NCBI GenBank assembly: GCA_041639695.1
Contig: JBEQBQ010000002.1
Span: 869-64,868 of the forward strand
DNA length: 64,000 nucleotides
Origin: Candidatus Nanohaloarchaea archaeon
GTDB taxonomy: Archaea; Nanohalarchaeota; Nanosalinia; Nanosalinales; Nanosalinaceae
Direction: 5' to 3'
Shown here: in pieces, positions 7,117 through 34,532 of the stretch
Layout of the letters: each line of letters starts with the position of its first letter
Numbering within the stretch: position 1 is the first letter of the stretch
Notes under the pieces: generated by a model
What the model saw: only the letters and a program-made list of their open reading frames with translations
The model's database searches: none
Told to the model about the DNA's origin: nothing
Position numbers and translations under genes: made by a program

Positions 7117-8052
7117 TTAAACCCCGATGGTCTCCGAGATAAACGATTCGGCGTGCCCTGGATCCTCTGCTTCCACTATAGCTCTTCCAGAACGAAAGAT
7201 TGTTAGCTCTCGACCTTTAATCTCTGCCCTAATAAGGTAGTCGTTCTCTGCCAGCACTTTTCCAGAATTCTTGACTTTTTCAAATGCTTCTTCCCCGAAG
7301 TCTTTCCTAACTTGGTACTTGTTCTGGCCGCAGACTGTTGAAACGTTCTGCTTTGAATTTATTTGTTCAAATTCGTTATCGTCACAGACTTTGCATCCCT
7401 GGCTTTCTATCTCGTACTCTGATCCATCAACGGTCTCCAAAGTTTCAGCCGGCGACAGGCCTGAAAGAAACCTAACGGCTTTCATCGTGCTCATAGATGC
7501 GGCTATCGTCGAGATCTCTCTGAGGATCCCTGCTGATTCACAAGTGTCAAGAGTTCCCGGTCTTACCTTTTCGAAGATGCAGTTAAAGCAGTTTGAATCT
7601 AGGAACATGGAGTAACCTTTTTCCCCTATTGCGGAGGTGTAAATCCAAGGTGTCCCGGTCTTTTTCGAGTACTCGTCTATTAAGAACCTTGTCTCCATGT
7701 TGTCCGTTCCATCTACTATGATATCAACTTCTTCAAGTTCACCGATATTTTCTGAGTTGAGGGATTCGTTGAACATCTGGACTTCCGTAAACTTTTCGAG
7801 GTATTTTCTGGCGGCAACTGCCTTTGGAAGTGATTTTTCGCAATCTTTAGGTGTGTAAATGTTTGATGAGTAGACATCATTTTCTTCGAGGTAGTCTCTG
7901 TCGAAAATAACCAGGTTGACTCCATGTCTTGCTAAATGTTCGGCTATGACAGAGCCGGTGGCGCCTAGCCCTATAACTGCGGCCTTCGAATTCTGCAGTT
8001 TTTCGAGTTCTTCTTCCCTGAAATTTTGAAGCGCCTTGAAACGGCTGTACAT
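7117..8052 (-). CDS. ThiF/MoeB/HesA-family E1-like adenylyltransferase
   Basis: 311 aa. AAVIGLGATGS nucleotide-binding loop near the N-terminus and two CxxC pairs (CFNC, CKVC), typical of E1-like enzymes. Confidence 0.7.
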   Translation of the reverse strand: MYSRFKALQNFREEELEKLQNSKAAVIGLGATGSVIAEHLARHGVNLVIFDRDYLEENDVYSSNIYTPKDCEKSLPKAVAARKYLEKFTEVQMFNESLNSENIGELEEVDIIVDGTDNMETRFLIDEYSKKTGTPWIYTSAIGEKGYSMFLDSNCFNCIFEKVRPGTLDTCESAGILREISTIAASMSTMKAVRFLSGLSPAETLETVDGSEYEIESQGCKVCDDNEFEQINSKQNVSTVCGQNKYQVRKDFGEEAFEKVKNSGKVLAENDYLIRAEIKGRELTIFRSGRAIVEAEDPGHAESFISETIGV

Positions 8053-8118
8053 ACGGTTTCAACAGCTTTGGAAGCTTTATTAAGCTGGCGGAGACATCAA
8101 TACTCTAGTGGTTTAACG

Positions 8119-8946
8119 ATGTTATCTCTTCCCGCACAACTCACAGGAAGCTATGCCTTACTAGGCTTCTCTATATCTCCCCAAATCATACTTGTAGCGC
8201 TCCTCGTGATATTCTCCGGATGGGTCGTCAACAAGATATCCAACGTACTGATTCAGAGAGCTGTAAAGAGAAGGGGCGGTGACGTGCATGCCGCGGTAAC
8301 CGGTAAGAAAATATCTGCCTATGTAATCTATTCACTTACTTTCGTGGCGGTCCTAGGCGTTTTTGGCGTCCCACTGACATCTCTAGGCGCAGTAGTCGGG
8401 CTAATAGGATTAGGACTGTCTTTCGCCTTGAAAGACATGATCGCCAACTTCATATCCGGCGTGCTAATCCTGGCGAACGGCGAGTTCAAGATAGGAGACC
8501 AGATAGAGGTTGCAGGAGAGGAAGGAACAATTAGAGACATTAAAATTCGTGCAACAGACATGAAGACATACGATGGACGAAAAGTAATTGTTCCGAACTC
8601 TCATCTGTACAGTAACGTAGTAATTAACAACACAGCCTACGACGAGAGAAGATTTGAGGTAATTGTAGGTATAGGTTATGATGACGATATCGACAAGGCG
8701 AAAGAGCTTGCACTTGAATCATTAGAGGAAGCTGAAGGTGTAGAAGCCGATCCAGAACCACAAGTCCTAGTGAATGAGCTTGGAGGTTCCTCTGTAAACC
8801 TTAAGCTGAGAGGATGGACAAAGCCAACTAGAGCCAACCAGGTAAAATCCTCTTCGGAAGTAACCAAGATCGTGAAGGAGAAGTATGACGAAGCCGGAAT
8901 CGACATTCCTTACCCCATCAGAACGGTCTACATGAACGAGGAATAA
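8119..8946 (+). CDS. small-conductance mechanosensitive channel (MscS family)
   Basis: MscS core FISGVLILANGEFKIGDQIEVAGEEGTIRDIKIRATDMKTYDGRKVIVPNSHL. The ORF is open from 8026, but ATG 8119 avoids overlap with the divergent ThiF start. Confidence 0.8.
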   Translation: MLSLPAQLTGSYALLGFSISPQIILVALLVIFSGWVVNKISNVLIQRAVKRRGGDVHAAVTGKKISAYVIYSLTFVAVLGVFGVPLTSLGAVVGLIGLGLSFALKDMIANFISGVLILANGEFKIGDQIEVAGEEGTIRDIKIRATDMKTYDGRKVIVPNSHLYSNVVINNTAYDERRFEVIVGIGYDDDIDKAKELALESLEEAEGVEADPEPQVLVNELGGSSVNLKLRGWTKPTRANQVKSSSEVTKIVKEKYDEAGIDIPYPIRTVYMNEE

Positions 8947-11178: not shown

Positions 11179-12363
11179 ATGTGGGTAGAAAAATACAGGC
11201 CGGAAAGCCTCGACGACTATCGGGGAGCGAAGAAAGAGAAAAAGAAGCTGAAGGAGTGGGCCGAGGACTGGGAGAAAGGTGATGGCCCTGCGATGCTTCA
11301 CGGCCCTGCAGGCACAGGAAAAACCTCGCTTGTAGAAGCCTTGGCGAATGATTTAGATCTTGAACTTGTCGAGACAAATGCTTCAGATGTCAGGACGAAA
11401 AAGAAGTTGAAGAGCGAACTGAAGGAGGCAACAAGACAGCAATCATTCTTCGGCGGACAGAAACTGATCCTGATTGATGAGGTCGATGGCATGGGGTCAA
11501 CAGATAGAGGTGGAACTCAGGAGCTTAACCGGATAGTTGATGGAACAAGATTTCCGGTTGTAATGACAGCAAATGATGCCTATGATTCGAAAATCCGTTC
11601 TCTGAAGAATAAATCAGAACTAATTGAGATAGGTAAAGTACACACGAACTCGATAAATGCACACCTAAAGAAGATTCTCGAAAATGAGGATATAGAATAT
11701 GAAGACGGTGCTGTAAAACGTATCGCAAGGCAGGCAAACGGCCAGATGCGTTCAGCCATCAACGACTTAGAGGCCGCGGCCACAGGACAAGATAAAGTTA
11801 CTAAAGACGATCTAGAGGCCATAGGAGTTAGGGATAACGAGCAAGAAATCTTTGACGCTTTGAAAATGGTTTTCAAGACGGATAATGCTTCTACTGCAAA
11901 AAGAGCGACAGATAACTTGGATGAAGATGCGGATACGTTCATGCAGTGGATAAGAGAAAACGTGCCTCGAGAATATGAAAGAAAGGAAGATGTTTCTAAT
12001 GCTTATAACTGGGTTTCGAAGGCTGACCTGTTTAATGGGAGAATTCATAAGCATCAGAACTGGAAACTGTTGAAATATGTTTATCTTTACTCGACAGTCG
12101 GCGTAGCTCTTTCGAAGCGTCAGAAATACAAGGGATGGACTAAGTATCAGTATCCTTCGAAGATCCGTAAAATGGGGAGTTCAAAGGCCGCTAGAAACCA
12201 GATGAATTCAGTCTCAAAGAAGATTGGTGAAAAGCTTCATATCTCGATGAGGGAGTCAAAGTCGACGATACCGTTTTTGGCCAAGTTGGTTGAGCATGAG
12301 CCTGAAGTTATAGAACAGCTTGAACTTGACGAGGATGATGTCGAGTTCATCAAAGAATTTTAG
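11179..12363 (+). CDS. rfcL: replication factor C large subunit
   Basis: MWVEKYRPESL, GPAGTGKTS, LIDEVDGM; lies immediately after rfcS. Confidence 0.85.
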   Translation: MWVEKYRPESLDDYRGAKKEKKKLKEWAEDWEKGDGPAMLHGPAGTGKTSLVEALANDLDLELVETNASDVRTKKKLKSELKEATRQQSFFGGQKLILIDEVDGMGSTDRGGTQELNRIVDGTRFPVVMTANDAYDSKIRSLKNKSELIEIGKVHTNSINAHLKKILENEDIEYEDGAVKRIARQANGQMRSAINDLEAAATGQDKVTKDDLEAIGVRDNEQEIFDALKMVFKTDNASTAKRATDNLDEDADTFMQWIRENVPREYERKEDVSNAYNWVSKADLFNGRIHKHQNWKLLKYVYLYSTVGVALSKRQKYKGWTKYQYPSKIRKMGSSKAARNQMNSVSKKIGEKLHISMRESKSTIPFLAKLVEHEPEVIEQLELDEDDVEFIKEF

Positions 12364-12674
12364 CCTATACACGTCATTTCTAAGCGTTTATCAACTTTGA
12401 ACATAGTGACGTTATAGCAGCTCTTCTCGTCCCAGTATTCTACTGTTGTGCTGTAGGACTCGAAGAACTCGACAGCTTTTCTAAAGTTTTTCCTTGCCTT
12501 AGGAGAGGTACCTGCTTTAGCTGCCTCAGTTTTAACCGATGAAACTACGTATGCCGTATCATCAACACTGTACTGTTGCTTATTTACTTCTGTGATGGTT
12601 GATGCAACACCAATAACCACTAGACCTATGACAATTGAGGAAATAAGCATAAACTGGCCTTTCATCTTTTCCAC
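12360..12674 (-). CDS. prepilin-like protein (class III signal peptide)
   Basis: N-terminus MEKMKG|QFMLISSIVIGLVVIGVA, i.e. KGQ followed by a hydrophobic helix; last gene of the pilus operon. Confidence 0.65.
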   Translation of the reverse strand: MEKMKGQFMLISSIVIGLVVIGVASTITEVNKQQYSVDDTAYVVSSVKTEAAKAGTSPKARKNFRKAVEFFESYSTTVEYWDEKSCYNVTMFKVDKRLEMTCIG

Positions 12675-14440
12675 CTCAGAGAGGCCTTGTAAGGTATATA
12701 GGTCGTGCCTGAGGTACCTCCCACTACTTTGGTTCCAATTGAAGAGGATAGTTCAGGTCCGAACTGTTTATTATCGCCCTCAAGCCAGTAAATTAGCGAA
12801 GAGATAAGTTTATAATCGGTCTTACTGTAATCCTGATAGTCTAATCTAACAATCTGTCCGTTTTGATCTTCTAAACTGGATCTGTAGTTCACGAGCTCTG
12901 CTCGGCCATCGCCCATGAAGTCAAAGATCGCCACATCCCCGTCCTCTAGACTTTCCGTATCAGGGTAGAAAGCTCTATAACTCTTGTTCTCCACTACAAG
13001 AGTCTCGCCGTTGAGGTAAGGGCCTTCTCTTTCATCTCCGTAATTTCCATCTCTGTCAAAGTCAATACTTAAAGCTCTAGCGTCCTCGCTGGCACAGACT
13101 GAAGGCGAGCTCCCCATTTCAGTATTTATAACATTATAGCTTACTGTTCCGGGTTGTTGGTGGAGAGGAAACTCAAATGTTCCTTTCGTGAATGCTTCTG
13201 GGTTACCGCTGTAACAAGCTGATTCTGGGTGGCCTGGATGGTTTGCGGGGTTTGCTGGTTGCATGTTCCAGTTTGTAGCGTTCCATTCATCTGTGTCGTA
13301 TATTTTGTCGCTAGATTTGAGTAGCTGTCTTTGGTCGAAAACCGTCTGTGAGTTGGATGAAACTACTTTGCCGCCGGTACCGATTGAAATATCACTTGTT
13401 TTGCCGTTAACTCCGTTGAAGTAGGTCTCTATCTTTTCAGAGTTTCTCGAACCGGTAAAGACGGCAGAGTTTACGTTTTTCTCTTTAGTCATATCTGCCC
13501 ATTTCAATCCTGAATCATCTAGGAAACCTGAATTGAGTTCGGAGCGGTCGATATCCATTAAAAGTACTATGTGACCTCCATTCTGTAAGTATTCCTTTAG
13601 TTTATTCCTGTACATGTTAAGATAGTCTTCTGATTCTCTGCTGAAAACCAGAACGTCGTAGATGCTTAGATCAGTGTTTAGTTTGGTTGTATCCAATTTT
13701 TGAGCTGTTTTGATTCCATTAACGTCGTTATCTAGTATTTTCTTAAGGTCTGCAGCTATATCTGCCCGATGAAGCGTCATCTGGTTTTGGCCTAGCTTCT
13801 TTATGTCGAAGGATCGATTGGTGGAGCCTGTCCATTTGAACATTTCGTCTAGATAGTAAGGGCCTTCCGAATCTGAGAACTGGCATGTAGATCTGTTGTC
13901 GATCCAGAGACTGTCATAATCCAAAGTTGTGTCAAAACCTCCGGTAACGTCCGGATCCGTATCAGCCACATATATCCTTTCTCCATACTTTCCTGAGTTT
14001 TCTTGTACTGTTCTCAGTATAGTTTCATCTGTTTCAATCTCTTCGAGGTCGCCGGAACACTGGTCGCCAGGTTCAACTTCCTCAAGATCAAAGTTCTGAG
14101 ATCCCGGAACGTTTGAACTAGTGTTAAAGCCTATGGTTGATTCTTTTATTGGAAGATTTTCTATTGTTCCTGCAACGCTCAATTGGTCGGAGCTTAGTTC
14201 CTTTGCAGCGTACTGGAGCGATGCTGTGTCGTCACGTTTCATGAAGCTTTGCATGTCGCCGGTGATTTTCAGTGTCTGTCCGAGGTCATTAGCCGTAGTT
14301 TCAATCTGGAAGTTCGACCAGTCCTGTGCTGGGGCCGGGGCAGTATTTCCGAGGGCGAAGATGAATAGGGTGATTATCGCTATCATAGCCTCAATAATAT
14401 GGCCTACACCTTTACGCTTCTTTCCTATCACCAGGTCCAC
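12662..14440 (-). CDS. large prepilin-like / adhesin-like protein
   Basis: 592 aa. KKRKGVG|HIIEAMIAIITLFIFALG N-terminus; Ca-binding-like DFDRDGNYGD and FDFMGDGRAE motifs near the C-terminus. Confidence 0.6.
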   Translation of the reverse strand: MDLVIGKKRKGVGHIIEAMIAIITLFIFALGNTAPAPAQDWSNFQIETTANDLGQTLKITGDMQSFMKRDDTASLQYAAKELSSDQLSVAGTIENLPIKESTIGFNTSSNVPGSQNFDLEEVEPGDQCSGDLEEIETDETILRTVQENSGKYGERIYVADTDPDVTGGFDTTLDYDSLWIDNRSTCQFSDSEGPYYLDEMFKWTGSTNRSFDIKKLGQNQMTLHRADIAADLKKILDNDVNGIKTAQKLDTTKLNTDLSIYDVLVFSRESEDYLNMYRNKLKEYLQNGGHIVLLMDIDRSELNSGFLDDSGLKWADMTKEKNVNSAVFTGSRNSEKIETYFNGVNGKTSDISIGTGGKVVSSNSQTVFDQRQLLKSSDKIYDTDEWNATNWNMQPANPANHPGHPESACYSGNPEAFTKGTFEFPLHQQPGTVSYNVINTEMGSSPSVCASEDARALSIDFDRDGNYGDEREGPYLNGETLVVENKSYRAFYPDTESLEDGDVAIFDFMGDGRAELVNYRSSLEDQNGQIVRLDYQDYSKTDYKLISSLIYWLEGDNKQFGPELSSSIGTKVVGGTSGTTYIPYKASLRWKR

Positions 14441-15264
14441 ACCTCTATTCTTATCGGTTCTTCTTCAAGGGATGCAAATCTCTGGAGCTTTACAACTGTG
14501 GAGCTTGTGTCGATTCGGGCGCCAAATGTTTTTAGATGATCTTTAAGAAGAACAAGTGATCCTTGGTTCTCGGCCCGGTTCTGAAAGCTTTCTACAATAT
14601 AACCTGTGCTGTAGATTTCCTGTCCTCTTTCAAATCTTCCTGCGGTATTAAAATCCCAGTTACCAATACTCACATATATGGCGTTATAGGCGCCGTCATG
14701 AGAGGTTACTAGGAAGTTGTAGTTGGTTCCTTCTAGGTCTGCTGAACCGTATTGAACTGTATTGTCGGCGTTAGAGTATACTGGTTGGTTTGGTTCATCT
14801 ATATTGGGGCTTGAGGGGGGATCGCCTCTAGTAAAACTTTTGTTTGTGTCGATCGTAGGTCTCCACGTGAATTTGAATCTGAACTGGTTCGTTATACCCA
14901 TTAAATCTCGGAATTTGGAGTAATTAAGCCTTTTATCGGTGAAGTTAACTGAGGATAATCTTCTGATCTTCTCCCTTTCTAACTCGAGGAAGTCTTTAGC
15001 GAGCCCAAAGCTTTCTATGTTTCTTATAGTGTTCTGATTTTTCTGCCAGTCTGCCCCACCTGATCCGAACGTGTGACTTCCCGGAGCTGAAAGCATTACA
15101 TCTGTAACGCTTTTTGCTTCGAGGTTGAGACTTGATTTGTCTGCTTGATCGCTGTAAGAAGGTAGAAGATTTGATGCTGAGGTCATTAGAACCCCTACGG
15201 CAAGGATGTAAAGTAGTGCGGAAGCCAGAAATTCTATGTTTATCTGACCTTTCATCTTAGACAC
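14428..15264 (-). CDS. prepilin-like protein (class III signal peptide)
   Basis: MSKMKG|QINIEFLASALLYILAVGVLM; overlaps both neighbours. Confidence 0.65.
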   Translation of the reverse strand: MSKMKGQINIEFLASALLYILAVGVLMTSASNLLPSYSDQADKSSLNLEAKSVTDVMLSAPGSHTFGSGGADWQKNQNTIRNIESFGLAKDFLELEREKIRRLSSVNFTDKRLNYSKFRDLMGITNQFRFKFTWRPTIDTNKSFTRGDPPSSPNIDEPNQPVYSNADNTVQYGSADLEGTNYNFLVTSHDGAYNAIYVSIGNWDFNTAGRFERGQEIYSTGYIVESFQNRAENQGSLVLLKDHLKTFGARIDTSSTVVKLQRFASLEEEPIRIEVWTW

Positions 15265-16279
15265 CCGATAGACCTACCATGTACATGAAGACCAGGAATG
15301 CTATAGGCATCATGACTAGGGCGTGTTTCACGCCAGCTGAAGGGCTGCCTTCACCGATTTGCCCGGCTACAGCTCCTGTACAGATTCCTTGGACCATTAG
15401 CATGGAGAAAAGTAGGGACTTGTAGTATGCCATAGCGCCGTATTTGAATTTTTGAGCTGTCTGATTGGTGAAGGACTCAAGTCCGCTAGGGATAAAACCG
15501 AATATTCTTGCCAGTTCGCATAGAGGTTGGGCGAAGGGGATACTTCCGTCACAGTAGTTGGGGGACCCTCCTGAGCCTCCCAGGAATTCAGTGTTTTGGA
15601 GTGCTCCGGCACCAGGATCACCTAGTCCTAGGAGTTGTGAAAGCATGTAGTAGATTCCTACCGTGATTCCGATGAACAAGAAGTAGATAACGTACATTAT
15701 GAAGATCTGCTGCTTGATTTTCGAGTTTTTTTCCTGTATAACTTCCTTGAGCTGGGCTGAGTCTTCAGCGATGGATTCGATAGTTTTTGTGATGTTTCCT
15801 CCGCTTCGAAAGCTCTGTAAAAGGATAGAAACTGACTCCTGTATAACTGCTGATTCGTCCATTCTTTTGGAAAAACGTTCCATCACTTCTGGGAATGGGA
15901 TACCCCATGTAAGTTCGTTATGTATCTGTTCAATCTCCTTGTTGAGTCTTCCGTAATCTGTTTCTTTGGCTGATTCAAAGGACTGTATAATCGTCATACC
16001 GCCTCTCTTCGATTCTGCTAGGTCTTTGAGGAATGAAGGGAATTGATCTTCTACTTCTCTAATAGCACGGTTCTTGAGGAATGAAATTATTCCATATGGT
16101 AGAATTGATACTATTAGCCCTAGGATCAGTATAGAGCCGCCCATCTGCTGAAGTCCAGATACGTAAGAAAGAATGCCTATTAATATAAGGAAGGCTCCTG
16201 CACTTATTGCACTGAGAATTATTTTGTCTTCGGTTGAACGTCCTTTCTGGAGCTTTTCCTCTTTGAAGAATTCGAACAT
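15257..16279 (-). CDS. type IV pilus platform protein, single T2SSF domain (TadC/FlaJ-like half)
   Basis: 340 aa. One cytoplasmic T2SSF-like helical domain (FPSFLKDLAESKRGGMTIIQSFE...SGGNITKTIESIA) flanked by TM helices. Confidence 0.75.
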   Translation of the reverse strand: MFEFFKEEKLQKGRSTEDKIILSAISAGAFLILIGILSYVSGLQQMGGSILILGLIVSILPYGIISFLKNRAIREVEDQFPSFLKDLAESKRGGMTIIQSFESAKETDYGRLNKEIEQIHNELTWGIPFPEVMERFSKRMDESAVIQESVSILLQSFRSGGNITKTIESIAEDSAQLKEVIQEKNSKIKQQIFIMYVIYFLFIGITVGIYYMLSQLLGLGDPGAGALQNTEFLGGSGGSPNYCDGSIPFAQPLCELARIFGFIPSGLESFTNQTAQKFKYGAMAYYKSLLFSMLMVQGICTGAVAGQIGEGSPSAGVKHALVMMPIAFLVFMYMVGLSGV

Positions 16280-16283
16280 GGTA

Positions 16284-17156
16284 TCACCTGATACCTCCTG
16301 GAGCCATTCCCTTGACCATTAGAATAAACATGCCTGAGATCAGAGGAAGCCCGACAAATATGGCAGCCATCTGGATTAGGACGATCTTGGATCCTCCGAT
16401 ATTTGTGAATGAACTCATCACGACGCTCATCGAGGTAAATACAATTGAACCAACAATAACGACAGTAATATACATTTCAACCACAAGAGAAAGCTGCTCG
16501 GCGAAGGATTCTACCCTACGCTGGTAATCGTTCATTAGGGTTTTTGAACGCTCCTGTAGGAAAGCTCTTAGAGATCCTCCGGAAGTAAGAGCGTGATTTA
16601 TTCCCCAAAGTAGTTCCTCAAAGTCTTTGCTCGGAGTTCTTTCCGCTGCTCTTTCCAGTGCCTCCGAAACATCCATTCCAAAGTTGTCTATATCTCTGCT
16701 TATTTTTTCAGCTTCTTTTGATACTTCTCCATACTCTGTTGTAGAGGAGAGGATTTTGAACAGCTCGGATATGTCTGTTCCTGTGCCTGCAAGCGTTGAC
16801 ATGTACATGGTTGCGAATGGGAGTGTGTCTCTGATCTTTGATGCCCTCTGTTTCTTCAACACCGAAGGATATAGATAGAAGAAGAGCAGGCTGCCTGCTG
16901 AAACCAGAATTGAAATAATCAAGCCAATAATTATGCCTGAAGGCCCTGAAATAAGGGTAAGCGGGATTCCCAGTACGAAAAGGCTAAAGATAAAGCTCAT
17001 GATGGTTGAGAAAAACATCATGCTCAAGTATTCTGGCAGCGATATCTCTATATTCGCCTTGGCCAGTTGAGGCCTTAGTTCCTCGAACGTCTCAACATAG
17101 TCCAGAGTATATGTACCTATCTGGTCATAGCAGAAGTTTGCGTACTTCTCTAGCAT
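16284..17156 (-). CDS. type IV pilus platform protein, single T2SSF domain (TadB/FlaJ-like half)
   Basis: 290 aa. LPFATMYMSTLAGTGTDISELFK...SGGSLRAFLQERS with flanking TM helices. Confidence 0.75.
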   Translation of the reverse strand: MLEKYANFCYDQIGTYTLDYVETFEELRPQLAKANIEISLPEYLSMMFFSTIMSFIFSLFVLGIPLTLISGPSGIIIGLIISILVSAGSLLFFYLYPSVLKKQRASKIRDTLPFATMYMSTLAGTGTDISELFKILSSTTEYGEVSKEAEKISRDIDNFGMDVSEALERAAERTPSKDFEELLWGINHALTSGGSLRAFLQERSKTLMNDYQRRVESFAEQLSLVVEMYITVVIVGSIVFTSMSVVMSSFTNIGGSKIVLIQMAAIFVGLPLISGMFILMVKGMAPGGIR

Positions 17157-18865
17157 CAGTCTCCAATTCCTATTTCGGTATGCTCGGAATTTAAGCTTTC
17201 CCCGACTTCTTCTAGAATAGACTCTGGATCGGAGTAGTAACGTGAAATAATATCTCCGACCTTACGGTAATGCTTTTTCTGCTCTTTCTGCATCCAATTA
17301 AGAACGTGTTGTCTTCTTTGCAGCTCTTCTTGAATTTTTTGTTCGTCTCCTCCTGTTTCCTCGACGATTTCCTCTAGTAGAAGAGAGTTATTTTCTATCT
17401 TATAGGTATCATTTTTTGAATCCCATCCGAATACTTTGTTGGCATCTATACCAGTTCTCTTGTTGTATTCCTCAACCTCGTAGATTCCGGTAATCCTTCT
17501 GATGTACTTATTCCCTCTTCTGATTCTCTTAATCAGCATTATTGCGTCTAGAGTCTCGATTAGTGAAGGTGACAGGTTAATCGGGTTAGTTGTCAGACGG
17601 TCCATAAGCATGTCAAGGGAGTCTGCGTGGATCGTGCTGAGGCCTGTGTGTCCTGTTGCCATCTGCTGGAACAGAATGTATGCCTCTTCACCACGGACCT
17701 CGCCAACGATAATATATTCCGGTCTCTGACGAAGAGACTCCTTCAATAGATCATCCATGGATACCTCTCCGCCCTCTTCAACGCTTGAACCGAAGCCCGA
17801 ACGTGCTACCTCCGGAACCCAGTGGTCGTGTGGGAGCCTTAGCTCGGGGGTGTCCTCGATAGACACGATTTTCTTCTCAGGCCGGATGAAAAGGGAGAGA
17901 GCGTTGAGCTGAGAGGTTTTCCCTGCACCCGTTGTTCCACACACAAGAACAGACTTTTCGTGCTCGATCAAGGTCCACAGGTAGGAGAGCATTCTAGCGT
18001 TTTCGGTCTCGAAGTCCATCATGTGGATAGGAGTTAATGGATCCTCTGTGAACCTTCTGATCGTGAAGTTCGAACCTTTTCTGGCAATATCGGTTGCAAG
18101 AGTGGCCTGGACACGTGAACCATCAGGCAGAGAACCGTCGAGTAATGGCTGGGAAACAGAGATAGACCTGCCGCATCTCTGTGCAAGCTTCATGACGAAT
18201 GAGTCGAGTTTATCGGTATCTTCCCAGACGATATCGGTCTTGACAGATCCAAACTTAGGGTTTCTGTGGTATGCGTATACAGGAATATTGGTTCCGTCAC
18301 AGGAAATATCCTCTACTTCTGTATCGTTCATGAGAGGTTGAAGTTTTCCTAGGCCTGCGAAGTCTCTTTTCGCATAGTATCTGATAACTTCTCTCTGTTT
18401 ATCGCTTAATGATATTTCGTATTTATCAACGATCTGGTTCATCCGTTCCTCAAGGTATTCCTCTGCTTCTTCTGTTTCTAAGTCGGTGAAATCAAGGTCG
18501 AAGCTTCTTTCAAGTATTTCTTTTATTTTTCCTAGAATTCTCTCGGTTTCAGGGGTTAACTCAGGCTCTATAACTCTATAAATCAGCTCTCCGGCATCGT
18601 CATCCCAAGTGATATGTGCCCATGCATAGACCATTTCGCCCTCATCAGGATCTTCAGGTACTAGAGGGTAAGTAATATTCACATCGGAAAGACCTTCTTC
18701 CGTACCCTCTTCGTCCTCTTCCATAGATTCCCTGAATCTGCCTGGGGTAGGGACCTCTATCCCTCTGCTTGGTCCTGTGTCCTCTTCTTCTTCCTCGTCC
18801 TCGAACATCTCAGGGTGTTTAATCTTCCTGAGCTTCTCCGCCAGGCTGAGGAACTTGTAGCTCAT
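17156..18865 (-). CDS. type II/IV secretion-family ATPase (archaeal pilus assembly ATPase, FlaI/PilB/TadA-like)
   Basis: 569 aa. Walker A GTTGAGKTS, Walker B/Asp box PEYIIVGEVRGEEA, His box GHTGLSTIHA. Confidence 0.85.
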   Translation of the reverse strand: MSYKFLSLAEKLRKIKHPEMFEDEEEEEDTGPSRGIEVPTPGRFRESMEEDEEGTEEGLSDVNITYPLVPEDPDEGEMVYAWAHITWDDDAGELIYRVIEPELTPETERILGKIKEILERSFDLDFTDLETEEAEEYLEERMNQIVDKYEISLSDKQREVIRYYAKRDFAGLGKLQPLMNDTEVEDISCDGTNIPVYAYHRNPKFGSVKTDIVWEDTDKLDSFVMKLAQRCGRSISVSQPLLDGSLPDGSRVQATLATDIARKGSNFTIRRFTEDPLTPIHMMDFETENARMLSYLWTLIEHEKSVLVCGTTGAGKTSQLNALSLFIRPEKKIVSIEDTPELRLPHDHWVPEVARSGFGSSVEEGGEVSMDDLLKESLRQRPEYIIVGEVRGEEAYILFQQMATGHTGLSTIHADSLDMLMDRLTTNPINLSPSLIETLDAIMLIKRIRRGNKYIRRITGIYEVEEYNKRTGIDANKVFGWDSKNDTYKIENNSLLLEEIVEETGGDEQKIQEELQRRQHVLNWMQKEQKKHYRKVGDIISRYYSDPESILEEVGESLNSEHTEIGIGD

Positions 18866-19206
18866 TAGTTAGGCCTCAAAGAAATTTGGTTTCCCCTTTT
18901 GAAGATTTTTACGTTTCCGCCTGCGGAAGAGCCATCGAGGTTGTACATAGCGTCTAAGCTCTCTATACCTATCGAATAATTTCTGAAATTGGTAAAGATA
19001 TAGAGTTGATCATCTATTCCTATTCTGTAAGTGCTTCCTGCGATAGTTTCAGGAAGTTCAACTGTTTTAGATCCGTTAGTGTTTTGTAAACTTATCATGG
19101 TTCTCTTTACGTTATTTGCGATATTGATGGATTGTTTTTCTCTTGTTGTGTCGTAGGCGTCTTCCTTGTATTGATTTATTAGTGTAATACTTCCAACTGC
19201 TATCAT
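18865..19206 (-). CDS. prepilin-like protein; the ATG-defined ORF lacks its signal peptide, and the true start is probably at ATA 19263 or ATT 19260
   Basis: In-frame sequence between the upstream TGA (19267-19269) and ATG 19206 encodes E-I-I-KGQYLAVESVLTFGLGV, a complete class III signal motif. Confidence 0.55.
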   Translation of the reverse strand: MIAVGSITLINQYKEDAYDTTREKQSINIANNVKRTMISLQNTNGSKTVELPETIAGSTYRIGIDDQLYIFTNFRNYSIGIESLDAMYNLDGSSAGGNVKIFKRGNQISLRPN

Positions 19207-19266
19207 AACTCCGAGTCCGAACGTTAGGACCGACTCGACCGCCAGGTATTGTCCTTTAATTATCTC

Positions 19267-19941
19267 TCACCTGAAGCTAATCCTGACGTTAGTGTTTTTA
19301 CGTCTCAGCTTCTCTCCGGAAGGTAGTTCGACTCTCTCATCTCCCTCTTCCCAGACGGTTCCCTGGTTCGAAATCCTCAAAGTAACTTCTCCAGCGGAAA
19401 AGCTTTGTCCCTGTGACGTTATGTTTACTCTTTCCAGTATTGTTGATGTAGTCGTTTCAGCTCTCAAATTCCTGAATTCAATTCTGTACTCCATCACCGC
19501 ACTTCCAGGCCCTCCAGCAGGTTTAACTCCTATAACGCCAAGTTTCTCACTTCCCTTGAGTCCGAAAGGTCCTGAACCGAAGCTTAATGCCTGAAGGCTT
19601 TTACCCTCAAGTAAAGTCCAGGTATCAAGTGCGTAAGGCGGGTTTTCAGCATTTGTTGTTATCTGGATGAAGTTTTCTGTTTCATTAACGGAGATTCTGA
19701 AGTTCCGGGAGTTGGAGATGGACTCTCCGATTGTTAGTACTTCTGCGGTCCCTGTTCCTTCGTTACTTACTCTGTTGATCTCTCTGTATAAATCTACTAT
19801 CTCGTTTTCTATGTTGTTGAGTTCTGATTCGCTCTGCGATTTCTCTAGAATCGGTGTTCCCCAGACATATGCGGAGGCAACTGAACCTATCACCACGGAT
19901 GTTATCAGGACTGCAGTTACTGCCTGAGTCTGTCCCTTCAT
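19267..19941 (-). CDS. prepilin-like protein (class III signal peptide)
   Basis: MKG|QTQAVTAVLITSVVIGSVASAYVWG. Confidence 0.65.
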   Translation of the reverse strand: MKGQTQAVTAVLITSVVIGSVASAYVWGTPILEKSQSESELNNIENEIVDLYREINRVSNEGTGTAEVLTIGESISNSRNFRISVNETENFIQITTNAENPPYALDTWTLLEGKSLQALSFGSGPFGLKGSEKLGVIGVKPAGGPGSAVMEYRIEFRNLRAETTTSTILERVNITSQGQSFSAGEVTLRISNQGTVWEEGDERVELPSGEKLRRKNTNVRISFR

Positions 19942-19996
19942 AACTTACTATGCTGAGAACTTAGAATATAAAGGAAATGGAAAAGAGAGAACCTGG

Positions 19997-20560
19997 TTAG
20001 CAGGTTGAAGATCCTGAGCTCTGAGGCGAGCAAGTGTGTTCCCAAGTGAAGCCACTTACGTCATCGTAATTGATCTGGATGGTCAACTGGCTTGTGGGGT
20101 CAGGGAACTTAAATCCTGTATCGCACGTGTAGGTGGCTGACTCGTTCAATACACCTTTCGTGAGATCGTCTGAACCCATCTGGAAGCAACCGGTATCCTC
20201 TGAGCTTCCTGCCGCCCAGAATTGACTGTAGCCCGAGTCATCTCTGATCACATCCCATGGAAGAGCGCTCTGTTCTCCCGCGGGTATCGCGTAAAGTGAT
20301 ACCTCGCTCGTAAGATTCACTGCTCTTGAACCAGTGTTAGCTACGTTTATCTTGATACTCTGGTCGTCTGAGTCTTGATAGACGGATCTGTATGTTAAAC
20401 CGGTGTTGCTGGCCTTCTGTCTAGCCTCAAGCTGCTCAACGTTATCTTGTCCTTGGCCGGCAAGTTGCTGGTAAAGTCCCCATGCGGATGCTACAGCACC
20501 AACCGTGATTAAGAGTAGTAGTACGACTGCAATTACAGGTGTGATACCTTTTCGTTTCAT
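19997..20560 (-). CDS. archaeal type IV pilin (Pilin_N/DUF1628-type N-terminus)
   Basis: MKRKG|ITPVIAVVLLLLITVGAVASAW, the canonical haloarchaeal PilA-type motif. Confidence 0.75.
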   Translation of the reverse strand: MKRKGITPVIAVVLLLLITVGAVASAWGLYQQLAGQGQDNVEQLEARQKASNTGLTYRSVYQDSDDQSIKINVANTGSRAVNLTSEVSLYAIPAGEQSALPWDVIRDDSGYSQFWAAGSSEDTGCFQMGSDDLTKGVLNESATYTCDTGFKFPDPTSQLTIQINYDDVSGFTWEHTCSPQSSGSSTC

Positions 20561-20608
20561 GATTATTATCCTCTTATCTTGACTGTTTGACTGTCTTGTT
20601 TAAATAAT

Positions 20609-21106
20609 TCAGCAGAAGTTACCTCCCGAATTGAAGCAGTTAATGGTGTCGGATGTCTCGTAGGTTCCGGTCAATCTCACCAGCTTCGAATCGCTGTTAG
20701 AGGGGAAAGGCTCAGTTGTGTTTATAGGAATCATATCTTGTGGGTCAATATATACCTGATCAGATCTCGAGTTTAAGAACTCCCAGCTGGTTGAACCGTC
20801 CGATAATGGCCGTCCCTCAATATAAATATTCCAAAGCCTGTTTTCTTCAGGGTCTTGGATTTCAAGGCTTCTTTCTCCAGTATTCCTCACGTTAATAATT
20901 ATATGGCCGTTGGAGCCTTTGTAGCCGTTTTCTATATTCATGGAGGACTGTATTTTTCTCTGGTTTTCGGAAACCCGGTCTGCTGAATTGTCCTGAACGT
21001 TTTCCTGTATGCTCTGTAGAAATACGAAAGCTGAACCTGTTGCTGCAACACTTATACCAAGAAGCAGAACTGCTCCGATTACGGGTGTGAGTCCTTTCCT
21101 ATTCAT
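20609..21106 (-). CDS. archaeal type IV pilin (Pilin_N/DUF1628-type N-terminus)
   Basis: MNRKG|LTPVIGAVLLLGISVAATGSAF; paralog of 19997..20560. Confidence 0.75.
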   Translation of the reverse strand: MNRKGLTPVIGAVLLLGISVAATGSAFVFLQSIQENVQDNSADRVSENQRKIQSSMNIENGYKGSNGHIIINVRNTGERSLEIQDPEENRLWNIYIEGRPLSDGSTSWEFLNSRSDQVYIDPQDMIPINTTEPFPSNSDSKLVRLTGTYETSDTINCFNSGGNFC

Positions 21107-21824
21107 CGTTCATTTTGTCAAACTTCTTTCTGAGCTTCCTGATGTTGTCGTTGCCTGAGTTCCCTCTGTTATTCTTTGGCTGGTGGTTCTGTCGATTACC
21201 TTGTGCTTGATTGCCTTGTCGTTGCTGGTTCTGATTCTGGCTCTGCTGACTATTTCGGCCTGATTGTTGTCTTTGATTGCCTCTGTTTACATTTAGATCT
21301 GGTCCGGACCTCTGTTTCTGTCTCTTATTGTCCAACGTTTGATCCTTGTTTTGGGAGGTGTAGGATCTCTTAATGCTCTTGTTAAGTTGTTCGAGATTAT
21401 TGATTACCTGTTCGTTAGAATCTTTGATGTCATCGGCAACCCCTTGCATCTCGTTTCCTACGGCTTCTGCAACCCGGTTATGTACATCGCTGATAACTTC
21501 TCCTTCAAGGTCTGTCTCGGAAGCTTCGTTCAGAAGATCCATGAATGAGTTCATGTTGTCCACAACTTCCTCCATTCTGTGCGTGAGGTCTTCCACGGAG
21601 TTCTTCAGTTCGTGTGTCGACTCGGTCATGTCGTTGACGATTTTCTGGTTCGACTTCATGATGTCTAGAACATCGCGCACGAGCTCATCGTTTCGTCCGC
21701 CTGACTCGGTTTTCTGGGCCTCCATCTCATCTATTCTTCTTTCAAGCTTTCTGATTGGTCCTACAGGAACGACCTCGTAGTCGTCCTCATCTCCGCCGCC
21801 GAGTTCCACTTCGTCCTTTGACAT
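21099..21824 (-). CDS. coiled-coil protein with basic Q/N/R-rich C-terminal tail, first gene of the pilus operon
   Basis: 241 aa. Acidic helical N-terminal two thirds, then ...QRQQSGRNSQQSQNQNQQRQGNQAQGNRQNHQPKNNRGNSGN. Overlaps the next gene by 8 nt. Confidence 0.55.
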   Translation of the reverse strand: MSKDEVELGGGDEDDYEVVPVGPIRKLERRIDEMEAQKTESGGRNDELVRDVLDIMKSNQKIVNDMTESTHELKNSVEDLTHRMEEVVDNMNSFMDLLNEASETDLEGEVISDVHNRVAEAVGNEMQGVADDIKDSNEQVINNLEQLNKSIKRSYTSQNKDQTLDNKRQKQRSGPDLNVNRGNQRQQSGRNSQQSQNQNQQRQGNQAQGNRQNHQPKNNRGNSGNDNIRKLRKKFDKMNDE

Positions 21825-21938: not shown

Positions 21939-22976
21939 CTAACGAATCATCGACTTGCTGATAGTACAAAACGTTTTACGCGGTGCTCCAACGATGTTAT
22001 CGTCTGAATTAAGGTTTAAGTATTGTATTTCATAGCTCTTTGATGAGTCTAATTTTCGCTCTCCGGTTAGCACTATGGAGTGGGTTTCGGTATTGCTCGC
22101 GCCTTGTTCGACGTTTATGAAATCTTTATTGTCGGTAACATTCCTAAAAACTCCAATAAGGCGGTCTCCGTCCGAGAAACTATTCACAGTAATCTCGGCA
22201 CTGATTCGGTAGTGCCCTGTCTCTGGCGGAGAAAATTGGTTATTTGCTAGGTCAAAGTCACTGGTAACGTCTGTCACTTTGTTATCCCAGGTAACGGTCA
22301 CGCGACCGTTAGCCGTATTATAAGACTGGCTACTGGTTTTTTCAACTTCGATGAGAACTTCATCAGTAACATCTAAATTGGCTGTACTGAGTGAGCCAAA
22401 CTCTCCTTCGGTTGAGGCGTCCCAGTTACTGCCATCTGATATGAATGACAGCGACCATCCTGCGTTCGCGACGGCTTTCGAGGCTTCCCCGCCAGGGTCG
22501 ATCGTTTCAGAGCCTTCGGTGTCAACGGTGACGCTGTTCGCACCGCTTATGTTGACGATGTCGATTTTGTTGCCTTGGGTGGTGTCGGTAGTTCCAAGCG
22601 TGACTGTGACTGGACCGTTGCTAGTGTCAGCGTAGATGGCGTCTTCGCCGTTCGTTGTATAGCTTGTTCTGTTGGCTGAGTCGATTACTTCCGTATTTTT
22701 ACTGACTTCTTTATCATTTTGGAATATTCCGTTCTTGGTTAGTTTTAGTCCGGATGCGGAGGCTAAGCCTATTGCTCCGAGGCCTGCGCTAGCTACTCCG
22801 GCTTTCTTCAGAAAACTTCTTCGTGATATTTCTTTCTGTTCTCTGACCTTTCCAGTTATCTTTTTTTCTTTAATTATTTTCTTTTTCTTATTCTCGTCAT
22901 TTAGTCTTTCTTCGAGCCTCTCCTCTACCTTTTTCTCCACAAGTTTCTCTAACTTTTCATCGTCTACAGAGGTCAT
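21939..22976 (-). CDS. coiled-coil-leader / twin-arginine-signal secreted protein with C1q/TNF-like C-terminal head (family member 1)
   Basis: 345 aa. EKLEKLVEKKVEERLEERL..., RR at residues 52-53 (ISRRSFLKKAGVASAGLGAIGLASASG|LKL). Confidence 0.7.
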   Translation of the reverse strand: MTSVDDEKLEKLVEKKVEERLEERLNDENKKKKIIKEKKITGKVREQKEISRRSFLKKAGVASAGLGAIGLASASGLKLTKNGIFQNDKEVSKNTEVIDSANRTSYTTNGEDAIYADTSNGPVTVTLGTTDTTQGNKIDIVNISGANSVTVDTEGSETIDPGGEASKAVANAGWSLSFISDGSNWDASTEGEFGSLSTANLDVTDEVLIEVEKTSSQSYNTANGRVTVTWDNKVTDVTSDFDLANNQFSPPETGHYRISAEITVNSFSDGDRLIGVFRNVTDNKDFINVEQGASNTETHSIVLTGERKLDSSKSYEIQYLNLNSDDNIVGAPRKTFCTISKSMIR

Positions 22977-31486: not shown

Positions 31487-32224
31487 CTATCTGAAGTTCT
31501 GTACATCGACTTTCAGGAAGTCGGCGCCCGTAGGCAGCTGGTAAAGAACATCATACTTGAAACCGTACTCGCTTGAGATCGTAGCCTTAATCCTGCCCGT
31601 TCCAATATAATCTCCTAGTTGTTCGGCTTCTGTATAACCTGTTCCGTAGCTTGTAGATGGCTCGGCATTAAGTTTTACGGTAATATTGCCGTCCAGGTTT
31701 TTGTTCGGGCCTTCAGGGTTTTTGAACTCGTAGAGGGCGACTAGCTTTGAGGTATTGATACTTTGAGGAGAGCTGCTTGAACCCACATTTTTAATACAGG
31801 CCTTAATATGGTCGTTCTCCATAAGGTAGCACGAGGTTCCGTCTATAGTAGTTTTGTTTACCTCCACATTTGCAGAGGAACTTAAGACTATGTTGCCGCT
31901 TTTCTTCGAGGTCTGTGGCGATATTACGTTTGAATCAGTACGTAACTCATATATTAAGGATTTGGTGTCGTTGTTGAAATAGAGTTCTCCCCGGCTAAAA
32001 CTTATATCCATAGTTCTTGTAGAGCCTTTCCCTTCGGAGACGACTTCTTGGACGTTGGAGTCTACAGTCTGCATGAAGTTCTGGGCCTTCCTGATCGAGT
32101 TGGCGTCCTGCATGTTTTCAAGTGCGGGGGCGCCAACTGTAAGGGCTGCAGAGACCGCGGTCACAGTCACTCCTACGTATATTGCCATCGTCGCGATCTC
32201 AGAAACTCCTTTCGACATAACCAA
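31487..32224 (-). CDS. prepilin-like protein (class III signal peptide)
   Basis: MVMSKG|VSEIATMAIYVGVTVTAVSAAL. Confidence 0.6.
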   Translation of the reverse strand: MVMSKGVSEIATMAIYVGVTVTAVSAALTVGAPALENMQDANSIRKAQNFMQTVDSNVQEVVSEGKGSTRTMDISFSRGELYFNNDTKSLIYELRTDSNVISPQTSKKSGNIVLSSSANVEVNKTTIDGTSCYLMENDHIKACIKNVGSSSSPQSINTSKLVALYEFKNPEGPNKNLDGNITVKLNAEPSTSYGTGYTEAEQLGDYIGTGRIKATISSEYGFKYDVLYQLPTGADFLKVDVQNFR

Positions 32225-32248
32225 TCCTACTTTCTGGTGGCTTAAATA

Positions 32249-32797
32249 TTAATGGAGCCGGGTATTTACCCAGGTCTCACTATCATCTTCCATCTTGGAC
32301 CAGACAAACATACGGGAGTTAGAAACGTTAAACTCTCTGTCTATTCCGAGCGATTTCACCTTAATACGGGATTCAAACTTTCCTTCAGGAAGCGAAATCT
32401 GTTTGCTCTGCATGGATTCTAGAGTTAAGTTGGACCAAGATCCGTCTACTTGTATATCTGTATTGATTAGGGAATCGCCGTAATTAATTACGAGCCCTTT
32501 ACCCGAATAAGGAAGTAAGATATAATTTAGGCCTCTATAATCTATACCTTTTCTCTGAGACTGCCTGTCTATGAATCTGTGAGAGTTGTAAACCCTTCTT
32601 TCGATATATGTTGATGAGAGATTTTTCTGAAGGGCTTCGTCAAAAGATTCAACTGGTACATCCATCGAATCCGAGAAGTACTGCCTAAAATAGGTTTCTT
32701 CTCCGCCTTCTACAAAGTCGCCGTAAGAATAGACTGTTAGGAGAATGAAGCTTGAGAATACGATAGCTGAAAGTATGAAGACTTGGCCCTTTCTCAT
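32249..32797 (-). CDS. prepilin-like protein (class III signal peptide)
   Basis: MRKG|QVFILSAIVFSSFILLTVY. Confidence 0.6.
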   Translation of the reverse strand: MRKGQVFILSAIVFSSFILLTVYSYGDFVEGGEETYFRQYFSDSMDVPVESFDEALQKNLSSTYIERRVYNSHRFIDRQSQRKGIDYRGLNYILLPYSGKGLVINYGDSLINTDIQVDGSWSNLTLESMQSKQISLPEGKFESRIKVKSLGIDREFNVSNSRMFVWSKMEDDSETWVNTRLH

Positions 32798-33369
32798 TTG
32801 TATATCGCCGCCCGTATCTCGTAGCTCGAGTTTTCATATCCGGGATAGTTTACTGTATATACGTCGTCTTTCTCAGGCAGATTACCTTTCGAAATATATG
32901 AGTTAAATGAAACAGTAAGCTTTCCGGTTCCAGTAATATTGAACCATCTTTGGCCCGAATCAACGCTCTCAAAGTGGTAACCGTCTTTACTGATGTTGTC
33001 AAGCACCTTTGAATCCCCAAAACTTGCGTTGAGGTTGTCTGCGTTCTTCACCCATAGCTGCATGCCTGAAAGATTCGAGCTACTGAAATATGTCTGATCC
33101 GGGGACTGGAGACTTCTGTAAGTTGAGTTCATTTGGATTATTCTGACTGAATGATTGTAGCTCTCAGGTATAGTTGAATCAATTTTGTTCTTGACTAAAG
33201 AGGGGTCAAGCGGTAGTTTATCTCTTTGTTCTAGAGTTTTAAGTTCCTGCAGAACGCTGTCAAACTCGATATCTGCCTGCTGTGAAGTCTGGGGTAGAAC
33301 AACAAGTACCATAGTCAGAATTAGTGTCGATGCTATGACTGCCTCTAAAGTATGTATGAAACCCTTCAC
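32794..33369 (-). CDS. prepilin-like protein (class III signal peptide)
   Basis: MKG|FIHTLEAVIASTLILTMVLVVL; the N-terminus resembles that of 12662..14440 (GHIIEAMIAII). Confidence 0.6.
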   Translation of the reverse strand: MKGFIHTLEAVIASTLILTMVLVVLPQTSQQADIEFDSVLQELKTLEQRDKLPLDPSLVKNKIDSTIPESYNHSVRIIQMNSTYRSLQSPDQTYFSSSNLSGMQLWVKNADNLNASFGDSKVLDNISKDGYHFESVDSGQRWFNITGTGKLTVSFNSYISKGNLPEKDDVYTVNYPGYENSSYEIRAAIYK

Positions 33370-34532
33370 CAGACGGTCACCCTTGTACTTAGCTCAGTTA
33401 AGCTACCGTTCCTGTAAAAACCGGTAAGAAAGCCTTCTCTCGACACAGCCTGTTGCAAAGGTATCTGGCTGCCTATGGAGGTAATTTTCTTAGTTTGGTT
33501 CGATACTGAAATGTTAAACCTGTCCGGAGAACGTTCTAAGAGGTTTTGAAGCTCTTGATCTGATTTATTGTTAAGTTCTTCTATCCTCGCTATAGGGGCT
33601 GCTGGGAAACTGTTTAGGGGTCCGAAAACGGTTTTACCTTCGCTGTAGCTCTTTATCCTCTTCCAGCCTGCTTTGTAGTCTTTATCGTGAAGTCTTATCC
33701 GGACTCTGCTTGCGTTTATCTCCGCCAACACCGTCGAGCTATCGGGCTTGGATACATCAGCCTCCATATTACCTATAAAGCTTATGCCGTAGTTTGATGC
33801 TACGGTAAAACCTTTTGTGGTTCCCTGTTTGAAGGATCCGCTTCCTACAAGTTCGGTTGTAGAGTTGTCTGCTTCCCAGTACAGAGTTGAAAGGTTTTTG
33901 AGTTGGAAGGATATATCGGAGGCGTTTTCAAGAATCAGTTCCGTTGAACCGTTGTAAATATTTAGATCGACCGGCCTCATCTCTGCAAATAACCGATATT
34001 CCTCTATATTAAAGGTTGAAGTATTTAGATCCGCGGAGGATGAGAGAAGCTGTTTGTCATTAATTTTTAGCGACTGAAGCCCATTCCCGCCTGGTTTTAC
34101 TGAAATATCGGAGTTGTTCATCCATGTTCCTGTATCAATATCCTGGTAGACGTCCCCTGTAATATTTCTCGGGAAGAGATTCAGAGTTCTAGTAGCATTC
34201 GATTTCTCTATTACTGTAACTGTTCTGTTCTTGTAGAGCTCAACATTTTCATTCCCTAGGCTCGCGTTAACATAGAATTTGTCAAAAAAATGTTTTCGAT
34301 CCACAGGAACGCTTGAGATTGTAAACGGCGACCTTGTTACCAGTTTTTTCTGGCCGAGAGAATCAGTAAACTGGCTCTCCAAACGTTCGCCGACCTGGGT
34401 TGCCAGATTTTCTAGATTGCTTGAGTTTTCTCCTGTCTGGTAGCCGGCTAGGAAGATAATGCTGGAGAGTAATGTGATTATCATTAGACCCAGTCCTATA
34501 GACCAGTCGATGTTGACGGACTGACCTTTCAA
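33366..34532 (-). CDS. prepilin-like protein (class III signal peptide)
   Basis: MKG|QSVNIDWSIGLGLMIITLLSSIIFLAG; 388 aa. Confidence 0.6.
   Translation of the reverse strand: MKGQSVNIDWSIGLGLMIITLLSSIIFLAGYQTGENSSNLENLATQVGERLESQFTDSLGQKKLVTRSPFTISSVPVDRKHFFDKFYVNASLGNENVELYKNRTVTVIEKSNATRTLNLFPRNITGDVYQDIDTGTWMNNSDISVKPGGNGLQSLKINDKQLLSSSADLNTSTFNIEEYRLFAEMRPVDLNIYNGSTELILENASDISFQLKNLSTLYWEADNSTTELVGSGSFKQGTTKGFTVASNYGISFIGNMEADVSKPDSSTVLAEINASRVRIRLHDKDYKAGWKRIKSYSEGKTVFGPLNSFPAAPIARIEELNNKSDQELQNLLERSPDRFNISVSNQTKKITSIGSQIPLQQAVSREGFLTGFYRNGSLTELSTRVTVW

Follow-up and report, generated by a model that had tools for sequence, protein, structure and literature searches.

A conserved nanohaloarchaeal operon for a probable type IV pilus-like filament, and its prepilin-like proteins

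Layout and conservation of the operon

The stretch of DNA analysed here (64,000 nucleotides, positions 869 to 64,868 of contig JBEQBQ010000002.1 in assembly GCA_041639695.1, hereafter the window) comes from a tiny symbiotic archaeon of salt lakes that belongs to the Nanohaloarchaeota, a phylum of the DPANN archaea, and whose genome assembly consists of 38 contigs (0.97 Mb, ~45% G+C, 89% complete). Between window positions 12360 and 21824 it carries eleven genes on the minus strand, which are joined by overlaps of 1-13 nucleotides (nt) or separated by gaps of 4-55 nt. This locus would be the core operon of a type IV pilus-like filament that is not an archaellum and that carries the marker families of euryarchaeal 'clade 2' pili, a reading to which we give a probability of about 0.85. 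The operon itself has already been published, as an 11-gene operon by La Cono et al. (2020) and as 'Locus 1' by Hamm et al. (2024), and the window provides a well-annotated example of it. In the order of transcription the genes are as follows (a slash marks the predicted cleavage position; lengths are in amino acids, aa):

21099..21824, minus strand: coiled-coil protein (CCP), 241 aa; generic coiled-coil Pfam matches
20609..21106, minus strand: PilA-type pilin 1 (pilA1), 165 aa, MNRKG/LTPVIGAVLLL; Pilin_N PF07790, TIGR02537
19997..20560, minus strand: PilA-type pilin 2 (pilA2), 187 aa, MKRKG/ITPVIAVVLLL; TIGR02537
19267..19941, minus strand: p224, minor-pilin-like, MKG/QTQAVTAV; DUF7289 family
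18865..19260, minus strand: p131, minor-pilin-like, (ATT)KG/QYLAVESVL; DUF7266 family
17156..18865, minus strand: assembly ATPase, 569 aa, FlaI/GspE2/PilB3-like; T2SSE, PilB3_C
16284..17156, minus strand: platform protein, N-terminal half (platform-N), 290 aa; single T2SSF domain
15257..16279, minus strand: platform protein, C-terminal half (platform-C), 340 aa; single T2SSF domain
14428..15264 (likely start ATG 15255), minus strand: p278, minor-pilin-like, MKG/QINIEFLAS; DUF7287-like
12662..14440, minus strand: p592, large prepilin-like, KRKG/VGHIIEAMIAI; conserved N-terminus, candidate adhesin
12360..12674 (likely start ATG 12665), minus strand: p104, small prepilin-like, MKG/QFMLISS; conserved leader, two invariant Cys

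The first-pass annotation of the window had described a co-directional, mostly overlapping operon that encodes a complete type IV pilus-like assembly locus, and on both points it holds: all the genes that it listed lie at their coordinates on the minus strand, and the ATPase with its T2SSE domain, two T2SSF platform genes and prepilins with conserved motifs are present. Its count of eight prepilin-like genes was one too many, as seven are found in 12360-21824, which is also the sum of its own list.

The motor and platform genes are readily recognized. The ATPase matches T2SSE with 113 bits and PilB3_C (PF23989) with 29.5-33.2 bits (cut-off 27), and it contains a Walker A motif (GTTGAGKTS) together with the Asp box, Walker B and the His box. 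Compared with proteins of known structure, it scores 369 bits against afGspE (2OAP), 266 bits against Sulfolobus acidocaldarius FlaI and 150 bits against CpaF, and its motifs align over the full length with those of afGspE and FlaI. Since the two platform genes carry one T2SSF domain each (66.5 bits in platform-N, 57.9 bits in platform-C) and match the N-terminal and C-terminal halves of ArlJ (positions 5-248 and 271-452 of 555, respectively), they are best understood as a split FlaJ/PilC protein. This split is retained in all relatives examined (16 genomes of the phylum and Aenigmatarchaeota).

An orthologue of the ATPase is present in all 70 genomes of the phylum; its identity is 68-97% among members of the same family and 54-59% in the other four. 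The closest relative, the metagenome-assembled genome (MAG) MAG_AT22, shares 97% identity, and other genera of the family 70-83%. When all locus proteins were searched by tblastn in 16 genomes drawn from all five families of the phylum, Nanosalina J07AB43, SG9 and M3_22 among them, the same order was found in every one of them: a thermosome gene, the eleven locus genes and then the convergent genes for RFC-L and RFC-S. The order, including the thermosome, also recurs in Aenigmatarchaeota and in unclassified archaeal MAGs, where the identity of the ATPase is 45-54%. Between the thermosome gene and the operon, the window contains in addition a gene for a 345-aa Tat-signal protein (21939-22976, minus strand), which is absent from this place in most relatives and weakly matches the C-terminal beta-sandwich of a phage depolymerase (E 0.014).

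CCP, encoded by the first gene, lies directly upstream of pilA1 in 16/16 sampled genomes of the phylum, and likewise in Aenigmatarchaeota. The named relatives recovered with it are Nanohaloarchaeota (Nanosalina J07AB43, Nanohalobium, SG9, M3_22 and Asbonarchaeum). The N-terminal 160 aa are strongly conserved (DYEVVPVGPIRKLE..., DIMKSNQKIVNDM), and beyond them lie a variable Q/N/R-rich tail and a C-terminal RKLRKKF motif. The protein has neither a signal peptide nor a transmembrane or hydrophobic segment, and its sequence suggests a cytoplasmic location. Hamm et al., whose idea is that of a surface fibre, likened the orthologous coiled-coil protein to sigma-1, an attachment protein of viruses. 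Comparisons with the coiled-coil proteins of the third T2SSE locus of the genome (see below), with ArlX and with FlaC revealed no specific relationship. We would also like to mention that a contig titled 'MAG: Colwellia polaris' (JBLGBK010000003.1) encodes a coiled-coil protein 66% identical to CCP residues 2-159; the name of this bin looks wrong.

Pilins and prepilin-like proteins

The N-terminal motifs of the locus prepilins are of the class III type. Orthologues from as many as 17 genomes retain these predicted signals, which goes far beyond what chance would produce. Closest to described pilins are the tandem PilA-type proteins: pilA2 passes the TIGR02537 cut-off (21.8 bits, cut-off 20), pilA1 falls just under it (19.8 bits) and also matches Pilin_N PF07790 below cut-off (E 5e-4), and their orthologues retain the motif [RK]KG/[IV]TPV[IV]. 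A TATA-like element, ATTATTTAAA, is located ~40 nt upstream of pilA2.

The next gene product, p224, itself matches DUF7289 with an E-value of 0.026 only, but 13 of 18 members of the p224 family match DUF7289, the best with E 4e-10. Its residues K2 and Q4 are nearly invariant among orthologues. In an AlphaFold2 model (pLDDT 82.5) an N-terminal helix of 60 aa is followed by a beta domain, which is the architecture of a pilin; a fold search of this model against the PDB returned no match at E <= 0.001.

In p131, which matches DUF7266 above the cut-off (29.7 bits, cut-off 27.6), the leader KG/QYLAVE sits upstream of the sole ATG of the open reading frame. A Shine-Dalgarno sequence, AGGTGA, is found 6 nt upstream of the ATT codon at 19260. 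The codon directly preceding K-G-Q is ATT in three of 16 genomes (the window genome, a congener and one other), and the other 13 have TTG, ATG or GTG either immediately before K-G-Q or a few codons upstream of it; KGQY is retained in nearly all orthologues. Translation of p131 most likely starts at ATT 19260. By the same logic of Shine-Dalgarno sequence and spacing, the starts of p278 and p104 were placed at the ATG of MKGQ, and with the three starts so placed, four of the locus proteins would therefore share a minimal M-K-G leader. Eight of the 14 members of the p278 family match DUF7287, all under the cut-off (best E 2.6e-4), and Q4 is invariant among its orthologues; in p104 the residues K2, G3, Q4, C83 and C99 are invariant across ten orthologues.

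The 592-aa protein p592 is the largest of the seven. Its N-terminus is conserved in 15 orthologues, with the motif RKG/xGYxIE retained. The first-pass annotation had pointed to DxDxDG motifs in this protein, and these are real: there are two partly conserved FDxDxDG...EGPY motifs. Across the phylum the second of them shows fair conservation, and the first has its full form in distant families. The AlphaFold2 model of p592 (pLDDT 74.5) has a transmembrane helix at the N-terminus and, besides a helical region, domains of the alpha/beta and beta kinds; for this model the fold search against the PDB gave no match at E <= 0.001. A hint of likeness to ThuA or to the N-terminal domain of IFT52 (fold E 0.024; Pfam ThuA E 0.08) is too weak to be used. 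That p592 acts as a calcium-dependent adhesin, possibly at the tip of the filament, is plausible but unproven.

Taken by their sequences, five of the seven locus genes that had been left largely unannotated encode conserved prepilin-like proteins, and three of them can be assigned to DUF7289, DUF7266 and DUF7287.

Peptidase and further filament genes in the genome

A prepilin peptidase had been reported as missing from the window, and indeed no A24 peptidase is encoded anywhere on the window's contig. The class III peptidase that was consequently to be sought elsewhere was found: the single A24 peptidase of the genome (293 aa) is encoded on contig C3 at 7962-8843, and 13 orthologues from across the phylum all keep both catalytic Asp residues (FD[LI]xTTEVPD and WGGAD). 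By a crude hydropathy scan it has ~7-8 hydrophobic segments, to be set beside the nine transmembrane segments of EppA-type peptidases; it has no NCBIfam match. A24 peptidases are present in 64 of the 70 phylum genomes, representing all 32 genera. In many relatives the peptidase gene adjoins one for a fourth ATPase of ~500 aa, which is ~35% identical and forms its own clade (for example G043:C54:92529-95883, G068:C7:14692-17858 and G022:C29:18373-21665). The window genome is without this ATPase; what lies beside its peptidase gene instead is a gene for a coiled-coil protein of 435 aa and one for a pilin.

Two further loci with T2SSE ATPases are present in the genome. The first, C1:88846-94546, is a paralogous filament locus that is conserved across the phylum and encodes a 669-aa ATPase, a KaiC-like ATPase, two pilins and a platform that is again split, into proteins of 307 and 405 aa. 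The 669-aa ATPase is 46% identical to that of the operon, matches PilB3_C with 40 bits and has a variant Walker A motif (GGTATGKT[ST]). The other, C1:38714-50262, encodes a divergent ATPase of 753 aa, a T2SSF protein of 691 aa and at least four prepilin-like proteins, as well as two divergently transcribed coiled-coil proteins, one of which has a near-threshold match to FlaC_arch; this locus probably corresponds to the one that Hamm et al. (2024) named 'Locus 2'.

The window itself also contains a motor-less cluster of four prepilin-like genes (31487-34532, minus strand), with the N-termini MKG/QSVNI (388 aa), MKG/FIHTLE (191 aa), MRKG/QVFIL (182 aa) and MSKG/VSEIA (245 aa). The 245-aa protein (31487-32224), a paralogue of p224, scores above the DUF7289 cut-off. 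The other three resemble p278, p592 and p104 in their N-termini only, and profile comparisons with the p278 and p592 families gave likeness confined to N-termini or short motifs (hhalign probabilities of 23% and 12%), so that paralogy is established for the DUF7289 pair alone. A supplement line of PMC11291902 annotates a 243-aa protein of Nha. antarcticus as arCOG02911; this protein and the DUF7289 protein 31487-32224 are probably orthologues, and on the basis of the same line DUF7289 probably equals arCOG02911. Five further PilA-type prepilin genes ([RK]KG/[IV]SP[LI][IV]A) are scattered over the genome, at C1:73069-75429, C15:13449-14981, C17:16446-18350, C11:30407-30907 and C3:10221-10661; three of them encode C-terminal extensions of 500-790 aa and may represent pilin-anchored adhesins.

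Affiliation and possible role of the filament

The eleven genes of the window and their order are those of the 11-gene operon of Nanohalobium constans (PMC7443923) and of 'Locus 1' of Nha. antarcticus and cluster-2 DPANN archaea (PMC11291902). The thermosome ('GroEL') gene upstream, GatE further on, the leading coiled-coil protein, the one ATPase, the two TadC/FlaJ genes and the PilA/'FlaF' pilins are likewise shared. There is no essential difference; the window holds another species' copy. The published accounts left seven 'hypotheticals' of this operon largely unannotated.

These accounts disagree as to what the operon makes. La Cono et al. read it as archaellum-like (PMC7443923), as a reduced operon composed of FlaG, FlaI, FlaJ, FlaJ2 and seven hypotheticals, which could provide unattached cells with a rotating filament for motility. 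In Nha. antarcticus, proteins encoded by the orthologous locus have been detected in the proteome, and the interpretation there was a pilus (PMC6642349, PMC11291902). Filaments have been seen on cells of Nanohalobium constans, and long, thick filaments on Nanohalobium cells were termed archaella (PMC7443923). The archaellum reading can further appeal to the best NCBIfam matches of the ATPase and platform, which are ArlI (402 bits) and ArlJ, and to weak matches of the pilins to ArlF and ArlG (27 and 19 bits). The 402 bits obtained with the FlaI/ArlI equivalog NF058587 are, however, well under its cut-off of 550, which is passed in four control archaea, and the C1 paralogue scores the same; the ArlF and ArlG scores are far under the cut-off of 110; and the ATPase of the locus carries PilB3_C. 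As for accessory genes of the archaellum, none was found in this 89% complete assembly. The best archaellin match (PF01917), located on another contig, reaches 18.9 bits where 29.5 would be needed, Arch_fla_DE (FlaD/E, ArlCDE) has no match in the genome, and beside the C1 paralogue the sole KaiC-like protein linked to type IV pilus genes scores 50 bits with ArlH (cut-off 215). Matches to ArlX reach only E 0.01 and are of a generic coiled-coil kind. Hamm et al. (2019) also noted that required archaellum subunits are missing (PMC6642349). Because the FlaI equivalog stays under its cut-off and archaellin, FlaD/E and ArlH are lacking, the archaellum reading is unsupported, and we consider it very improbable.

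We also regard it as unlikely that a type IV filament machine is present whose main task is not adhesion, such as a competence pilus or pseudopilus for the uptake of DNA or other macromolecules from the host, or a bindosome-like system that anchors surface proteins without a long pilus. DNA import has been proposed for DPANN pili (PMC9563170), nucleotide biosynthesis is lacking in the organism according to the literature (PMC6642349), and further prepilin-like proteins of the genome, whose C-terminal domains are very large (C1:73069, C15:13449, C17:16446), could be anchored in a bindosome-like way. The locus, on the other hand, has no DNA-binding or ComEA/ComEC-like component among its Pfam and NCBIfam matches, the scores for BasE (207 bits, cut-off 1000) and BasF (62 bits, cut-off 1300) are far too low, and the pair of PilA-type genes in tandem, each with a TATA-like element of its own, suits abundant filament subunits.

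The kind of pilus was judged from marker families, using 14 control genomes that include Haloferax volcanii, Methanosarcina acetivorans, Methanocaldococcus jannaschii, S. acidocaldarius and Caulobacter. PilB3_C, DUF7289 and DUF7266 occur only in H. volcanii and M. acetivorans among these controls, the exception being a sub-threshold DUF7266 match in Caulobacter. Because the marker families share this Haloferax/Methanosarcina distribution, the locus fits the euryarchaeal clade 2 of Makarova, and not Epd (clade 1) or Tad, a placement made by marker families. Clade 2 loci often have two tadC-like genes, PilA-family pilins and an arCOG02911 minor pilin (PMC4858521). As in the clade 2 systems of H. 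volcanii (PilB3-PilC3, PilA1-6 and the PilB4 locus; PMC4858521), the window operon has a PilB3_C ATPase, PilA-family pilins, a putative DUF7289 (probably arCOG02911) minor pilin and two tadC-like genes. It differs in that pilins, minor pilins and motor are united in one operon, whereas PilB3 of H. volcanii uses pilins encoded in trans, in that a coiled-coil protein leads the operon, and in that its lineage is DPANN rather than Euryarchaeota.

The first-pass annotation had labelled the locus Epd/Tad-like, and neither label is supported. With the Epd system of Methanococcus maripaludis (EpdA-E, EpdJ/K, EpdL, EppA) it shares two platform genes, which are also common in clade 2 (PMC4858521), several minor pilins and Gln at +1 in four signals. 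PF04021 (Class_IIIsignal/DUF361, QxSxExxxL, the signature of EppA substrates) is nevertheless absent from the locus, its best match in the genome being E 1.4 and elsewhere, and among the controls it exceeds its cut-off only in M. jannaschii; conversely, the marker families of the locus, PilB3_C included, are absent from M. jannaschii, which in the case of PilB3_C speaks indirectly against a clade 1 (EpdL) ATPase. The major pilins of the window are moreover PilA-type proteins of 165-187 aa, in contrast to ~70 aa in Epd. The likeness to bacterial Tad/Flp systems (CpaF/TadA, TadB, TadC, Flp, TadV) consists in two single-domain platform genes and in an ATPase of the broad VirB11/CpaF-related superfamily. 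CpaF is distant from the ATPase, with 150 bits as opposed to 369 for afGspE, and stands outside its group in the tree; TIGR03819 (Tad) stays at 168 bits, under its cut-off of 373; the pilins, at 165-187 aa, match the archaeal models Pilin_N and TIGR02537 and would not be of the short Flp type; and neither TadZ nor a secretin was matched among the Pfam and NCBIfam results for the locus.

The ATPase tree was built with just three labelled references, namely afGspE, S. acidocaldarius FlaI and CpaF, all of them drawn from PDB alignments and with long branches. In it the Locus-1 ATPases form a single clade (support 100/99). With 100/99 support this clade groups with afGspE, FlaI and the KaiC-linked paralogue, and the ~500-aa paralogue and CpaF stand apart. 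A tblastn search against plasmids for labelled FlaI references gave just generic haloarchaeal 'T2SS/T4P ATPase' and bacterial CpaF matches, and the best haloarchaeal locus among them differs in architecture from the window operon.

Several points weigh against our reading of the locus as a clade 2-type pilus operon. La Cono et al., as described above, interpret the orthologous operon differently. With its few references and long branches, the ATPase tree leaves the order among FlaI, afGspE and the paralogue unresolved. No direct evidence links the filaments seen by electron microscopy to this operon as opposed to either of the further T2SSE loci of the genome (C1:88.8-94.5 kb and C1:38.7-50.3 kb). 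Which pilins are major and which minor is assigned by analogy only, and the models of p592 and p224 are without a significant fold match in the PDB, which leaves an adhesin function unproven.

If the operon does encode such a pilus, its products can be arranged into a working scheme. Homology shows a single hexameric ATPase of the FlaI/GspE2/PilB3 type on a membrane platform made of the two half-size FlaJ/PilC proteins, seven class III signal proteins and, encoded on another contig, the A24 aspartic peptidase that is available to cut these after the conserved K/R-G. The tandem PilA-type proteins may be the major subunits of the filament, and p224, p131, p278, p592 and p104, with their KG/Q or RKG/x leaders, could constitute a minor-pilin or priming complex at its tip, where the large p592 with its Asp-rich loops would be the distal adhesive component. 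The signal-less coiled-coil protein would be a cytoplasmic accessory or scaffold and not a surface fibre. The filament would most likely attach to the haloarchaeal host or to a substrate.

A more daring version of this scheme can be put forward only tentatively, and we hold it to be rather doubtful as a whole. Here the four small M-K-G/Q pilins and p592, with its two motifs resembling calcium loops, would form a fixed five-member tip/priming complex, analogous to the bacterial minor-pilin/PilY1 complex and serving as the host-recognition device; the coiled-coil protein would be a new cytoplasmic component of the motor or scaffold, whose association with the ATPase predates the split of Nanohaloarchaeota and Aenigmatarchaeota; and the cluster at 31487-34532 would provide an alternative tip set for the same machine.

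Filaments of this sort are the leading candidates for the means by which DPANN ectosymbionts locate a host and stay attached to it, and the operon is among the very few multi-gene clusters that are intact across whole DPANN phyla. What is added here is evidence that favours a pilus over an archaellum between the two published readings, and a placement with pili of the Haloferax/Methanosarcina type rather than with Epd or Tad. The five 'hypotheticals' that are now annotated as prepilin-like proteins are targets for filament proteomics and electron cryomicroscopy in co-cultures.

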